Origin: Bacteriovoracaceae bacterium
GTDB taxonomy: Bacteria; Bdellovibrionota; Bacteriovoracia; Bacteriovoracales; Bacteriovoracaceae
Reading direction: 5' to 3'
Assembly: GCA_041586955.1 (NCBI GenBank)
Contig: JBFGZE010000074.1
Span: forward strand, 1 to 17,468
DNA: 17,468 nt
Shown here: positions 10,698 through 17,468 of the stretch, piece after piece
How positions within the stretch are numbered: the first letter of the stretch is position 1
Layout of the letters: each line of letters begins with the position of its first letter
Program-made: the position numbers and the translations under genes
The notes under the pieces: generated by a model
What the model was told of the DNA's origin: nothing
The model's input: only the letters and a program-made list of their open reading frames with translations
Databases searched by the model: none

Positions 10698-12887
10698 CTA
10701 GCGAATACCCCAATCTTGATAGATTTTAGATGATCGCAAATAATCACGATAGGAGCAGGCCCTTTTGAGAAACGAGCTATGCATAAGTTTTGAGTTAATC
10801 CTCTTAGACGATGGGCCACCAGGAATAATGGGCCCAAGTTTTAGTCCAAGGCAGTATTTTTTATCGATTTTACTAGGCCATTTAGGGGCACTCAAGAGAC
10901 CAAAGCAGAGTTCTGTACGTGAGCGGCGGTGGATCTCTTTAATCATCCCAGAGGCATTTTTTTCTTTTTTGAGGAGCTCTTTAAGAAGAGTTTTAATGTT
11001 TTTTCGAAATACTTCAACAAAGCTTTCCATGGTGGCCAAGGTAATAGGGCGGGCCCTTTTGAGATCGGCCATAATTAAGGCATAATTATCGGTGCCACTA
11101 ATCTTGCTGAGCACATCGGCAAAGCGATCGGCCACTAAAAGTTGAGCTGCCATATTTTGGTCTTCCGGCGTCGCTCTTTTAAATAATTGCAGAAGTGATA
11201 AACGCACAATCATGTCTAAGCGACTCTGTAAGACGGCGACACCAAATTCTAATTCGGCTTCATTAAAGATTTTCTGCAGAGCTTCACGTGGCGAGACTCC
11301 GGTATCACCAAAGGTTGCTTCATTGATAAGGTCATTAATTCTCGTCAGTTTAGAAATAGTACTGGTGTATAGCTTGTCATAGACGCCTCGTTCAAAATTT
11401 CGAGGAACATTATTTGTTAAAAATTTAACTAAAGTTTCGACGGATTCTTTAGGACTTTTTTTCCACCGATTGGAAGATGGCTCCCAGGCACTGGTAATGA
11501 GCTTAAGCGGGTCCGGTTGTAGTGCCAGCGCCAATTCTTGATTAACTCTTTGCTTGGCCAGGTCCACCCATTGAAAATAACGAGATTGGAGGATCTCGTA
11601 ATTGGGAACAAAGGCGCCATTGGGCCATTGGCTAAATGGGTCAAACTCATTAAAGCCGATACCAAAACCCCCACTTGAGCGTGGTTGGGTACTAAGCCCT
11701 AAAAGATAAAAAGGCGCATAACTTTGAGTATAAATATCAAAAAGAGGATTGCCTCCCACGGAAGTGTTAGCAAAGCGGCTATTGTTGCCATCACTTAAAA
11801 GTTTATTGATGACAGAGCGGATGACAGACCATTTTTCGAGAGGGGTAACGGTCTTTTGGTAGAGAGGTCTATTTTCACCAATGATACCACTGCCTTTTGC
11901 TTTGGCGGAGCGGACTTTGGCCTCTCGGTTAAATACATTTCTCTGTCTTTCGGCATCTGCCGAGGTTGTCGCTTGGACTCCTGAACGAATTTGTGTCAGC
12001 CAATTAAGGAACACAGGAATTTCAATATCAACTAAGCGAACCGCTTTTTTTAATTCATCACGAGATCTCTCTCGGCGATTTACGGCCTTGTAATTAAGGA
12101 AGTGAATGGCATCATCCATTTCACACCAGCGATTGGATAAACTTTCCATCACACATTTATAGGCTTCAATGGCAGTTGAACTATTCGATAACTTTCGAAT
12201 TTTACTGGCCAGACGCCCTTTGCGGACGCCATCTACAATACTGCCAATAATGTCGGTACCGGCGGCGAGCCCTAGGCTGAGAGCGGGGTTAATACTTGAG
12301 CTGGCCGAGGTGATAGCAGCAGTCAATGAGCCAATATTACCTAAAAGCTGGGGCCTCTTTAAAAGACATACTTGGTTATTAACAATTTGCTCAATCGCAG
12401 AGTTACTAACAGTCACGATTTCTGACATGAGATGGGATTTGGATAGAGCTAATTGATTATCATAGGCGCGAATGGTGCCGATTAATCCCGCTCGCTGAAT
12501 TTGCAAATCGCTGAGCGCTGATTGCAATTGTTGGCGTACCATTGGGTCATTAGTACGGCTAAGCTGAAGGAGGATTTCTCGCTCCTGGGCCTCAATAATA
12601 TCTGCATCGATTCGATGGGAGTTAATATCTTCTAGACTATTAATTTTATAGGTGAGATTAGACAATTGGCCGATGGCACCAGCGACACTTTGGCAGTCGG
12701 GATCGTTGGCAATACTATTAATATTAACCATTAAGGCCTCGGCATCTCGCAGGGCCTGCTTGGTCCATTCTCCATGGGTTTTACAATTGGCGCTAAAAAA
12801 CTCTAGCATTTGCTCACCGGGAATAGTCTCACCATAGCTCTGGCCGATGGAGAATATAAGAAAAAGGATGATACCTTGTCGCTTCAT
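10698..12887 (-). CDS. Large secreted hypothetical protein (729 aa)
   Basis: Long ORF with GAGG SD, Sec signal peptide (MKRQGIILFLIFSIGQSYG), 8 Cys, and predicted helical/coiled-coil regions. No family recognised. Confidence 0.85.
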   Translation of the reverse strand: MKRQGIILFLIFSIGQSYGETIPGEQMLEFFSANCKTHGEWTKQALRDAEALMVNINSIANDPDCQSVAGAIGQLSNLTYKINSLEDINSHRIDADIIEAQEREILLQLSRTNDPMVRQQLQSALSDLQIQRAGLIGTIRAYDNQLALSKSHLMSEIVTVSNSAIEQIVNNQVCLLKRPQLLGNIGSLTAAITSASSSINPALSLGLAAGTDIIGSIVDGVRKGRLASKIRKLSNSSTAIEAYKCVMESLSNRWCEMDDAIHFLNYKAVNRRERSRDELKKAVRLVDIEIPVFLNWLTQIRSGVQATTSADAERQRNVFNREAKVRSAKAKGSGIIGENRPLYQKTVTPLEKWSVIRSVINKLLSDGNNSRFANTSVGGNPLFDIYTQSYAPFYLLGLSTQPRSSGGFGIGFNEFDPFSQWPNGAFVPNYEILQSRYFQWVDLAKQRVNQELALALQPDPLKLITSAWEPSSNRWKKSPKESVETLVKFLTNNVPRNFERGVYDKLYTSTISKLTRINDLINEATFGDTGVSPREALQKIFNEAELEFGVAVLQSRLDMIVRLSLLQLFKRATPEDQNMAAQLLVADRFADVLSKISGTDNYALIMADLKRARPITLATMESFVEVFRKNIKTLLKELLKKEKNASGMIKEIHRRSRTELCFGLLSAPKWPSKIDKKYCLGLKLGPIIPGGPSSKRINSKLMHSSFLKRACSYRDYLRSSKIYQDWGIR

Positions 12888-16337: not shown

Positions 16338-16367
16338 TTGTTTCGATTGATCACTTTATTGTATGAT
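16338..16367 (+). promoter_or_regulatory. Putative sigma70 promoter giving a leaderless mRNA for the binding protein
   Basis: TTGTTT(16338-16343)-N18-TATGAT(16362-16367)-N6-ATG(16374), with no SD. Confidence 0.45.
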
Positions 16368-16373
16368 CGCCCC

Positions 16374-17096
16374 ATGAAATCAATACTGCTTTTTCTATTA
16401 GTATTGGGATTTATACCTATAGAGGCAGGAACTTTACTTGTTGGGTTCAGCGATGTTCCTCCTCATATTACCATGAAACAAGGAAAAGTATTTGGCCCAG
16501 CGAAAGATTATATTGATATGGTGGCCAAGAAAGCGGGCCATAACCTCATTTGGGTTAAGGTTAATTCGAAAAAAGCAGTTGAAATGCTACTTGATGGTCA
16601 ACTCGACTTTTATTATGCATTCGCTCATTCTAGTAAACGAGATTTAAATCTTCAATTTGTGAATACTCCACTCGCGGAAACGATGTATTGTTTTTTGGTC
16701 CACAAAAATGACCCAATTACTTATGAAGAGATTATGAATACTTCGATCAAAATTTTAAGACCTCTTGGATTTGTTATCATCGACGCCTTAAGTAAAAAAA
16801 GAAATGATTTTATTGAAATTGGAGGGGTCGAGCATCGACCGCGACTCATTCAATTAATTTTAAGTAAAAGGGTAAGAGTTGCTTATCTCCCCGCATGTGA
16901 AATAACGAATGATATTGTTGGAAATGAAAATATTCGCATGATAAATATTAAAAATAGTAAAACCAAATTCTATTTTGCTTTTTCAAAAAAAGTTAAACCT
17001 GAGGTTGTTAAAAAGTTTGATGAAATTTTGGCAGAGCTCACCGAGCAGAAAAATAGTTATCTTGAATATTACAGCAGGACCCTCAAAAACAAATAA
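16374..17096 (+). CDS. Periplasmic substrate-binding protein (family 3-like), orphan
   Basis: Signal peptide MKSILLFLLVLGFIPIEA. DVPPH...G...DYI, EMLLDGQLDF, SSKRD, LIQLILSKRV and YFAFSKK follow the SBP_bac_3-like pattern. No permease or ATPase gene is adjacent. Confidence 0.78.
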   Translation: MKSILLFLLVLGFIPIEAGTLLVGFSDVPPHITMKQGKVFGPAKDYIDMVAKKAGHNLIWVKVNSKKAVEMLLDGQLDFYYAFAHSSKRDLNLQFVNTPLAETMYCFLVHKNDPITYEEIMNTSIKILRPLGFVIIDALSKKRNDFIEIGGVEHRPRLIQLILSKRVRVAYLPACEITNDIVGNENIRMINIKNSKTKFYFAFSKKVKPEVVKKFDEILAELTEQKNSYLEYYSRTLKNK

Positions 17097-17119
17097 ATTA
17101 TTTTCTAGTAATAAATGCC

Positions 17120-17153
17120 AAACGTACTATTTTTCTTAGTATGTTTATTTTTT
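17120..17153 (+). terminator. Possible intrinsic terminator after the binding-protein gene
   Basis: 10-bp AT-rich stem AAACGTACTA/TAGTATGTTT (one G-U pair), 7-nt loop, followed by ATTTTTT. Confidence 0.45.
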
Positions 17154-17251
17154 GATTCTTTACCTTTTCCAAAAAATGTTGAATATTTTTTAAAATTAAT
17201 GACCTTAGAATCTATTGGGCCCGTTTTGTTTTATTGGTTTTTTATTTTTCC

Positions 17252-17468
17252 CTCTCGCAGAGTGAACGAGAAGCGTAAGCGCCGAGAGATCGAATCCATT
17301 ATTTCAAAGAACTTTAGAATATCAAGGATGAGTGGTGGCCCGGGCATCTACAATGCGGCAAAGGCCTACGGGCTTTGAAGCGTTGGAGTTTACTCTCTCG
17401 CAGAGTGAACGAGAAGCGTAAGCGCCGAGAGATCGAATCCATTATTTCGAAGAACTGTAGATTATCAA
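17252..17468. repeat. Non-coding tandem direct repeat, period 143 bp (copies 17252-17325 and 17395-17468), truncated by the window end
   Basis: Both copies read CTCTCGCAGAGTGAACGAGAAGCGTAAGCGCCGAGAGATCGAATCCATTATTTC(a/g)AAGAACT(t/g)TAGA(a/t)TATCAA. The first 54 nt are identical and 71/74 match overall. The period is not a multiple of 3. Confidence 0.95.
17333..17344 (-). other. tRNA 3'-end-like fragment (acceptor 3' strand, discriminator base, CCA), Phe-like
   Basis: Minus strand CCCGGGCCACCA; B. subtilis tRNA-Phe ends CCCGAGCCACCA. No T-arm or 5' half lies upstream within the window, so this is not an intact tRNA. Confidence 0.5.

Follow-up and report, generated by a model that had tools for sequence, protein, structure and literature searches.

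In E. coli K-12, the tyrT/tyrV locus comprises three units at 178-bp spacing, each of which carries the tRNA-Tyr 3′ end, and both rttR and tpr are annotated there. We found the same arrangement, i.e. tandem units right behind a tRNA with the tRNA 3′ end in each unit, at one end of a 17,468-nt stretch of DNA from a Bacteriovoracaceae bacterium (genome G000; the whole analysed stretch is called the window), and the parallel to tyrT drawn in the original prediction for this DNA was upheld. The units belong to a non-coding family, which we named E. Integron gene cassettes are small promoter-less units with an attC site, an imperfect hairpin with conserved unpaired bases; they form tandem arrays and are thought to move as small circles, with the recombinase encoded elsewhere. 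E would resemble the cassettes as a small promoter-less unit with a folded recombination site and conserved unpaired bases, in movement as a small circle, in the formation of arrays and in a recombinase acting in trans. REP/REPIN-RAYT and IS200/IS605-derived elements likewise are short intergenic hairpin repeats with many copies per genome, located mostly just after genes, in hosts that have Y1 genes. Finally, elements integrated by integrases, CIMEs and tycheposons share with E a carried replacement gene end, the displaced native end as a direct repeat, stacking and decayed remnants. CIMEs are decayed gene-bearing elements, and E shares their logic.

The window is the entire contig C74 of the assembly, and its final 121 nt match the start of contig C87 (first 121 nt) without a difference. 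When searching the window with ARAGORN, no tRNA was found. On its minus strand, positions 17345->17333 read GCCCGGGCCACCA, followed by CTCATCC (17332->17326) and then by the repeated block. Past the overlap, C87 continues with AAAATGAG and with a minus-strand tRNA-Leu(CAA) at C87 c[129,212], which starts with GGCCCGG and has the 3′ end GCCCGGGCCACCA / CCGGGCCACCA. The last base of this tRNA is merged position 17476, which equals 17333 + 143 and is therefore in register with the 143-nt period. The original prediction had placed a minus-strand tRNA or a further unit with its end at about 17476, and had specified the start GGCCCGG, the 3′ end and the 143-bp register; the ARAGORN run on the right-hand flank confirmed each of these on C87. 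The predicted composition of the unit, a tRNA 3′ end plus a trailer of ~130 nt, also holds at this locus. The guess that the tRNA would be tRNA-Phe was wrong, as tRNA-Phe(gaa) of this genome, on contig C13, ends with GAGAGGGCACCA and the actual tRNA is Leu(CAA).

A further concern in the prediction had been that a 12-mer may match by chance. With both strands of the 3.46-Mb assembly (39% G+C) searched, the 12-mer CCCGGGCCACCA occurs exactly twice, once here and once at the 3′ end of the tRNA-Leu(CAA) gene itself, 143 nt onward on C87, which rules out a chance match. The shorter GCCCGGGCC has ~25 further occurrences in unrelated, mostly coding contexts and is uninformative. The tRNA-like sequence of 13 nt is a true duplicate of the tRNA-Leu(CAA) 3′ end. 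Together with its first trailer bases it forms the boundary between two units, A and B (Table 1), and this longer sequence has only two copies genome-wide, including the one on C87. For the proposed cutting of a transcript into unit-length RNAs by tRNA 3′-processing enzymes, a 5′ acceptor-strand partner of the duplicate was looked for inside the unit and not found. GCCCGGGC, which is present at window positions 17333-17345 and at the 5′ end of the tRNA on C87, is self-complementary, so that in a read-through transcript every duplicate of the tRNA end could pair with the tRNA 5′ acceptor strand or with another duplicate.

Table 1. Features of the array and its convergent neighbour, in window positions
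Feature	Position	Strand	Remarks
Family-3 solute-binding protein gene, convergent neighbour	16338..17096	+	
Element E unit B (distal, 3′-truncated)	17246..17327	-	94% identity to unit A over 80 nt
Promoter-like site, second copy, in unit B	17325->17298	-	Consensus match
tRNA-Leu(CAA) 3′-end duplicate plus first 5 trailer bases (CTCAT)	17328..17345	-	Identical to C87 141->124
Element E unit A	17346..17468	-	Full length, first 7 bases on next contig; covariance model R1
Conserved extended 3′ hairpin of unit A	17351..17385	-	RNAalifold; tail TAGAT at 17350->17346
Promoter-like TTGATA-16-AATAAT, start of unit A	17441..17468	-	10/12 consensus matches

In the orientation of the tRNA, the order at the locus is tRNA-Leu(CAA), E unit A (~130 nt), the tRNA-end duplicate, E unit B, an unrelated AT-rich spacer and the convergent gene. 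As this neighbour encodes a solute-binding protein, the array occupies a normal intergenic space that lacks a recombinase. A repeat search of the window detected the two units as an 80-nt repeat pair (17246-17325 and 17389-17468) with 94% identity and 143-nt spacing; the array was absent from the TRF output because fewer than two copies lie inside the window. Unit A matched covariance model R1 of family E at 17350-17432 (83.5 bits, E-value 5e-19) and is homologous to copies behind other tRNAs. It contains a 5′ stem, the loop motif GCGCTTACGC (17425->17416), the 3′ hairpin and a tail. Its hairpin reads CAACGC-TT-CAAAG-C-CC/GTA/GG-C-CTTTG-CC-GCATTG, with the conserved TT.CC and C.C mismatches. 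Unit B stops just short of the 3′ hairpin, so that it lacks both the hairpin and a following tRNA-end duplicate, and it matched R1 weakly and with its 5′ part only (17242-17289, 21 bits). Two open reading frames in the surroundings are recorded here for completeness. On the next contig, just upstream of the tRNA (L002 290-580), a 96-aa ORF that starts like a signal peptide and contains two internal repeats (...KGYCSPL.K..G.KNCKK...) has no Pfam match, and a 729-aa ORF on the minus strand of the window (10698-12887) has no Pfam match at an E-value of <= 1e-4.

We also examined Logan contigs. In two metagenome runs of one study, the duplicate has unit-A-type sequence on its left side (five differences, 17306-17327), and the junction consists of unit A with its hairpin, the duplicate and then unit A again. 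Its depth was 38.6-56.8 in X1, compared to 8.16 for the flank, and 10.6 in X2, compared to 4.6, i.e. 2.3 to 7x the flank, where contig depths are not equal to copy numbers. The junction and its raised depth indicate that the real array has at least one more full unit than was assembled, or that unit circles exist, and in both cases the break of the assembly at this place would be accounted for. The true array at tRNA-Leu(CAA) is probably longer than the assembled one.

The covariance model R1 was built on 83 conserved positions and run on 151 of the 237 genomes of the Bacteriovoracaceae. Matches were found in 19 of these 151 genomes, representing 13 of 69 genera, with up to six matches per genome; BLAST with one subfamily as query detected up to 12 copies in G131. 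A BLAST search against 41 relatives gave a tandem pair of matches in G015, a genome from a different genus of the family. Its tRNA-Leu(CAA) precedes two perfect units of 145 bp, both with GCCCGGGCCACCA as their end, and a strong terminator comes after them. Where a tRNA lies upstream on the same strand, E begins 27-85 nt downstream of it. At least eight tRNA species are followed by E in this way (Leu-CAA, Leu-TAA, Pro-TGG, Pro-GGG, Asp-GTC, Arg-TCG, Met-CAT and Glu-TTC), and behind each of them its own 3′ end is repeated (at least 10-16 nt), starting 1-6 nt past the model match. Further copies, in each case with a local repeat, lie downstream of metK and of two paralogous coding genes in one genome, next to the 5′ end of tmRNA and inside other intergenic repeats. 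Tandem arrays have from two to at least four units with periods of 110-175 nt and were found behind Leu-CAA, Pro-TGG and Met-CAT, and also at sites other than tRNAs. The unit length is ~107-184 nt in 22 of the 24 tabulated loci, and 143 nt at the locus described here.

In a census of 49 E copies, 33 were followed by an exactly repeated stretch of 10 nt or more, which started 0-6 nt past the model match and had its partner no more than 400 nt upstream; 16 had no nearby repeat. Control probes placed 150 nt further on found a repeat in 7 of 47 cases, and all seven were inside arrays. The E copy of the window was itself scored as a miss, because its partner lies on C87. The nearest relative of an E core was found in the same genome at a different target for 17 of 55 cores, at the same target in another genome for 16 and elsewhere for 22, a pattern that is consistent with spread inside genomes. 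No common motif or microhomology between the E tail and the target flank was seen. Outside the family genomes, a pattern scan of genome contigs yielded 12 loci, seven of which were chance matches in other phyla that fall outside family E. The scan of viral contigs gave two matches, both of them chance matches in GC-rich coding DNA without the hairpin. In the metagenome scan, 80 of 91 stretches were examined and 10 passed the model at an E-value of <= 0.001; an autonomous partner was found in none.

Other repeats were observed next to E. A third intergenic repeat, F (...AGCTCCCCA..TCTTTAGCTA...CAACAAGCCGGGTTCAAGCCCGGCTTTGTTGTCTCAGGAGCAATGGGAAAG), occurs at L060 1680-1900, L057, L058, L063 and L092 in the genus of G015. 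It is located after unrelated genes (guaA, an alanine-dehydrogenase-like gene and, in G131, metK) and has no Rfam match. E often adjoins this repeat and then duplicates its last 21-23 nt. Beside tRNA-Trp in G004 (L020 and L033), the E copy is followed by two fragments that resemble the 5′ half of tRNA-Trp on the reverse strand, and in each of them a short hairpin breaks the sequence at the position of the D-loop.

A unit combines a gene-end copy with the E module. The E module itself is ~90-130 nt long. It opens with a variable 5′ stem (loop with GCGCTNACGC) and a linker, which lead into an extended 3′ hairpin with imperfect pairing, and it closes with a fixed tail, ...TTTGCCGCAnGATGT in general and ...GCCGCATTGTAGAT at this locus, ~11 nt past the inner stem. 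The gene-end part of the unit extends, in the case of tRNAs, from about position 61-67 to CCA and sometimes includes trailer and terminator. The consensus of the hairpin is CAAYGC-TT-CAAAG-C-CC...GG-C-CTTTG-CC-GCAnTG with conserved TT.CC and C.C mismatches. Among 59 distinct copies, whose alignment was fitted to the model in a way that favours the structure, pairing was observed in 88.7% of cells, compared to 35-49% with a slid partner. Ten of the 13 hairpin pairs change on both sides, and the observed covariation was reached in none of 500 shuffles. Moreover, the stem centre is wholly different between E subfamilies while its pairing is retained, so that the fold matters in single-stranded form, either as DNA or as RNA. 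Folding of single sequences was unremarkable when compared to shuffles (z -0.98 and -1.78). In Rfam, the best E-value within 16900-17468 was 2.2, and at 12 related loci only tmRNA and tRNAs were found in gathering mode.

E also differs from two of the systems that it resembles. Elements of the integrase type have double-strand arm sites, whereas the conserved part of E is a covarying hairpin. Integron cassettes use one attI site and carry an ORF, whereas E is found at many gene ends and carries a spare gene end; no RYYYAAC/GTTRRRY core sites were seen in E by eye. A conserved, Tpr-like ORF was not found in the E units: the frame is open in the G000 unit and interrupted in the units of G015, G126 and Met-CAT, and the unit lengths are not multiples of three. 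Each unit of G000 opens with the candidate promoter TTGATA-16-AATAAT (a consensus match), and runs of A and T border the inner hairpin, with a true T-run after it in one array. With such a candidate promoter and T-run, a small transcription unit is conceivable, and an RNA function of E may coexist with mobility.

These features bear on the question whether the units move at all. A local tandem duplication of the tRNA trailer, without mobility and with the units kept for a small RNA (as rtT RNA) or as terminators, would fit the identical layout of E. coli tyrT/tyrV, a locus that yields the annotated RttR RNA (bioRxiv 10.1101/2024.07.17.603846). The promoter-like site in each G000 unit, as well as the inner hairpin with its A and T runs, could be read in the same way. 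However, tyrT/tyrV is a single locus with a small RNA and a small ORF, whereas E has many copies at many targets and no conserved ORF. The same module, always accompanied by the matching duplicate, was found downstream of at least eight tRNA species and of several protein genes, and this multi-target distribution already refutes the 'purely local' part of such a reading. In addition, occupancy varies among sister species, E has no Rfam match, and E and the E. coli units show no similarity in sequence or structure (the highest R1 score at tyrT/tyrV was 5 bits). We therefore regard a local origin by tandem duplication as very unlikely.

To follow E at a protein-coding target, we compared the metK locus between species. 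In G015, G130, G135 and G132, E is located immediately after the metK stop codon, and the final 16 codons of metK with their stop codon occur once more right after the E tail. The site is empty in G131 and G129. The functional and the displaced end of metK encode the same peptide and differ at 14 nt, all of them synonymous. The functional end does not vary among G015, G130 and G135, whereas the displaced ends differ mutually by 4-8 nt. An upstream end that is constant across species, next to a diverging downstream end, indicates that the upstream copy belongs to E and is not derived from the target. Between G015 and G135 there was no mismatch from +1 to +160, which corresponds to the 149-nt unit (gene-end copy plus E) and a 12-nt block, CCCTTGGGAAGA. 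In the flanks of the same pair, 600 nt of upstream metK are 93% identical, and the displaced end with the terminator 82%. The comparison of G130 with G135 showed the same borders, with two mismatches within the unit. Overall, the 149-nt block of spare gene end and E is 99% identical between species, whereas the flanks differ by 7-18%. That a non-coding block is better conserved than an essential gene, and with sharp borders, shows that it was exchanged recently as a unit. Judged from these alignments, the metK pattern is that of an integrative element which brings a replacement gene end, and not that of a target-site duplication.

A transposon-like insertion with target-site duplications of variable length, produced by SINE-like target-primed reverse transcription or by another staggered cut, would be in line with the precise tail of E, its variable 5′ ends and repeats of 10 to ~100 nt. 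The metK copies speak against such an origin, since they differ at 14 synonymous sites, with the upstream copy identical in three species and the downstream copy diverging with the species. Moreover, RVT_1 was found in only one of five E-bearing genomes, four of which are 96-99% complete, and a reverse transcriptase was therefore rejected as the engine. Taken together, we consider insertion by target-site duplication improbable. The term MITE was likewise rejected for E, because the repeat length is variable (10 to ~100 nt) and terminal inverted repeats are absent from the alignments. The suggestion in the original prediction that the duplicated ends act as spare or decoy attB sites survives in part: 'spare' comes near to the reading of a carried gene end, whereas the duplicates look like integration products of a mobile unit with its own gene-end copy, and not like decoys.

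The occupancy of the tRNA-Leu(CAA) site was then compared across one genus. Two E units are present at this site in G015. In G130, a different small element, X, which brings a terminator and a 21-nt duplicate of the tRNA end, comes first after the tRNA, and one E unit and a further, partial unit come next. A single E unit, its duplicate decayed, is found in G126, a truncated E in G134 and a remnant in G125. X only was found in G131, and neither E nor X in G135 and G129. E and X are thus stacked in differing order between tRNA-end copies in sister species. Decayed-element stacking, or accretion at one attachment site, has been documented (PMC5704250; bioRxiv 10.1101/2020.12.28.424599, on tycheposons), and the stacking of E and X follows the same pattern. 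X is a second small family (...GGCAGGAGCCGAAGCTGAC + CAAGTC...) that was observed at L013 1660-1800 (G130), L004 ~1190-1356 (G015), L210 (G131) and L019 (uncultured Halobacteriovorax). It is located behind tRNA-Leu(CAA) and tRNA-Asp and has its own terminator, and its closing tRNA-end duplicate is longer (11-24 nt) and starts in the T-loop.

Next to a mobile unit, the enzyme that drives it might be expected. No integrase was found among the 54 ORFs in 18 E loci, which are housekeeping genes, no recombinase was found in the window, and neither C74 nor C87 has a tyrosine or serine recombinase. The genome has five matches to PF00589, on contigs C18, C81 and C33. For seven of the E copies that lack a repeat, we also searched 10-20 kb upstream for a partner repeat and found none, so that no full-size parent was detected. 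These results are relevant to the possibility that the E copies are scars of large integrative islands or prophages, in which E would be the attP arm left by attR after loss of cargo and integrase, i.e. a CIME by decay. Direct repeats of a tRNA 3′ end are a hallmark of integrase-mediated integration, and the documented stacking of decayed elements at one tRNA has its counterpart in the stacked E and X at this type of locus. However, random decay would not yield units of 107-184 nt in 22 of 24 loci, and the 149-nt metK unit, with its sharp borders, is common to species at 99% identity. Units of ~110-180 nt without a gene, no integrase in the neighbourhood (0/54 ORFs), no upstream partner (0/7 copies) and viral contigs with two chance matches only are also unlike what is known of integrase-type elements and CIMEs. 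An origin of E as an island scar is therefore unlikely.

As single-stranded hairpin elements can be moved by HUH/Y1 enzymes, as in the IS200/IS605-derived and REP/RAYT types, Y1_Tnp was also searched for. It was present in all five E-bearing genomes tested and in 6 of 14 control genomes. An E copy was located within ~1.5 kb of only one of 12 Y1_Tnp loci. At this locus (L041 in G131), a 210-aa Y1_Tnp gene (IS200-like/RAYT-like) is flanked by AAAAGTATCGACGTACC at 1775-1792 and 2478-2495. The E copy lies ~260 nt from the gene, within a repeat that is found beside the gene as well, and is itself flanked by a near-identical AAAAGTATCGACGTACC-type motif in opposite orientation. Beyond this one locus, the link to a Y1 transposase was unsupported.

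If E were moved by such an enzyme, the duplicates and arrays would be secondary and due to slippage at the hairpin. The conserved mismatches and the covarying stem centre, the importance of the fold in single-stranded form, the element end ~11 nt past the inner stem and the Y1_Tnp genes in all five genomes, one of them close to an E copy, would fit. On the other hand, there is no consistent pairing with Y1 genes, which are common in general, and, unlike REP/RAYT elements, E is flanked by long direct repeats of gene ends. To our knowledge, known IS200/IS605-derived and REP/RAYT members make no direct repeats, which we counted against this explanation. The joint movement of the metK unit with its gene-end copy would also be left unexplained, and we give movement by an HUH/Y1 enzyme little credence.

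Observed in this study are the tRNA, its duplicate, the family E, the covarying hairpin, the transfer of the unit as one block, differences in occupancy and, at the loci searched, the lack of a recombinase in cis. The mechanism that we consider most likely, at about an even chance, is that the E unit acts as a miniature integrative unit and is mobilised in trans. The unit would consist of a copy of the target gene end and the structured E module. It would integrate at the end of a resident gene by conservative recombination within a short block that is identical in the copy of the unit and in the target. The functional gene would then end in the copy of the element, and the native end would be displaced downstream of the hairpin as the duplicate. 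The recombinase would act in trans, and arrays would be built by repeated integration at the regenerated site or by unequal exchange between units. Old distal copies would decay, where 3′-truncated units such as unit B need an extra assumption of decay. We infer a circular or single-stranded intermediate, with a role of the hairpin in recognition by the recombinase and/or as terminator. Since a duplex circle of 110-180 bp is stiff, the classical Campbell route would be physically awkward, which makes a single-stranded or unusual intermediate plausible. Some E copies lie in opposite orientation, with the tail abutting the CCA end of a tRNA or the 5′ end of tmRNA, and these are unpredicted by the miniature integrative unit model.

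More tentatively, E could represent a class of minimal gene-free integrative units (~110-180 nt, a hairpin plus a spare gene end) that hop between gene ends and between species via a tiny circular or single-stranded intermediate, with a host recombinase reading the folded hairpin and with a promoter and terminator of their own as a possibility. We consider this wider proposal possible, with the chances rather against it. No published description of an E-like element was found in the literature, as judged mostly from search results and not from full texts, and the E family thus apparently is undescribed as a mobile element; integration with a carried gene end is already known. If the proposal is true, E would be among the smallest mobile DNA units known, and integration at gene ends with a carried replacement end would need no gene-bearing island. 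For annotation, the family would then be a warning of false partial tRNAs and of contig breaks at tRNA genes. It would then also explain many short tRNA-end duplicates and tandem tRNA trailers, possibly including tyrT. For the organisms themselves, it would point to a trans-acting recombination system in marine predatory bacteria that recognises a folded hairpin.
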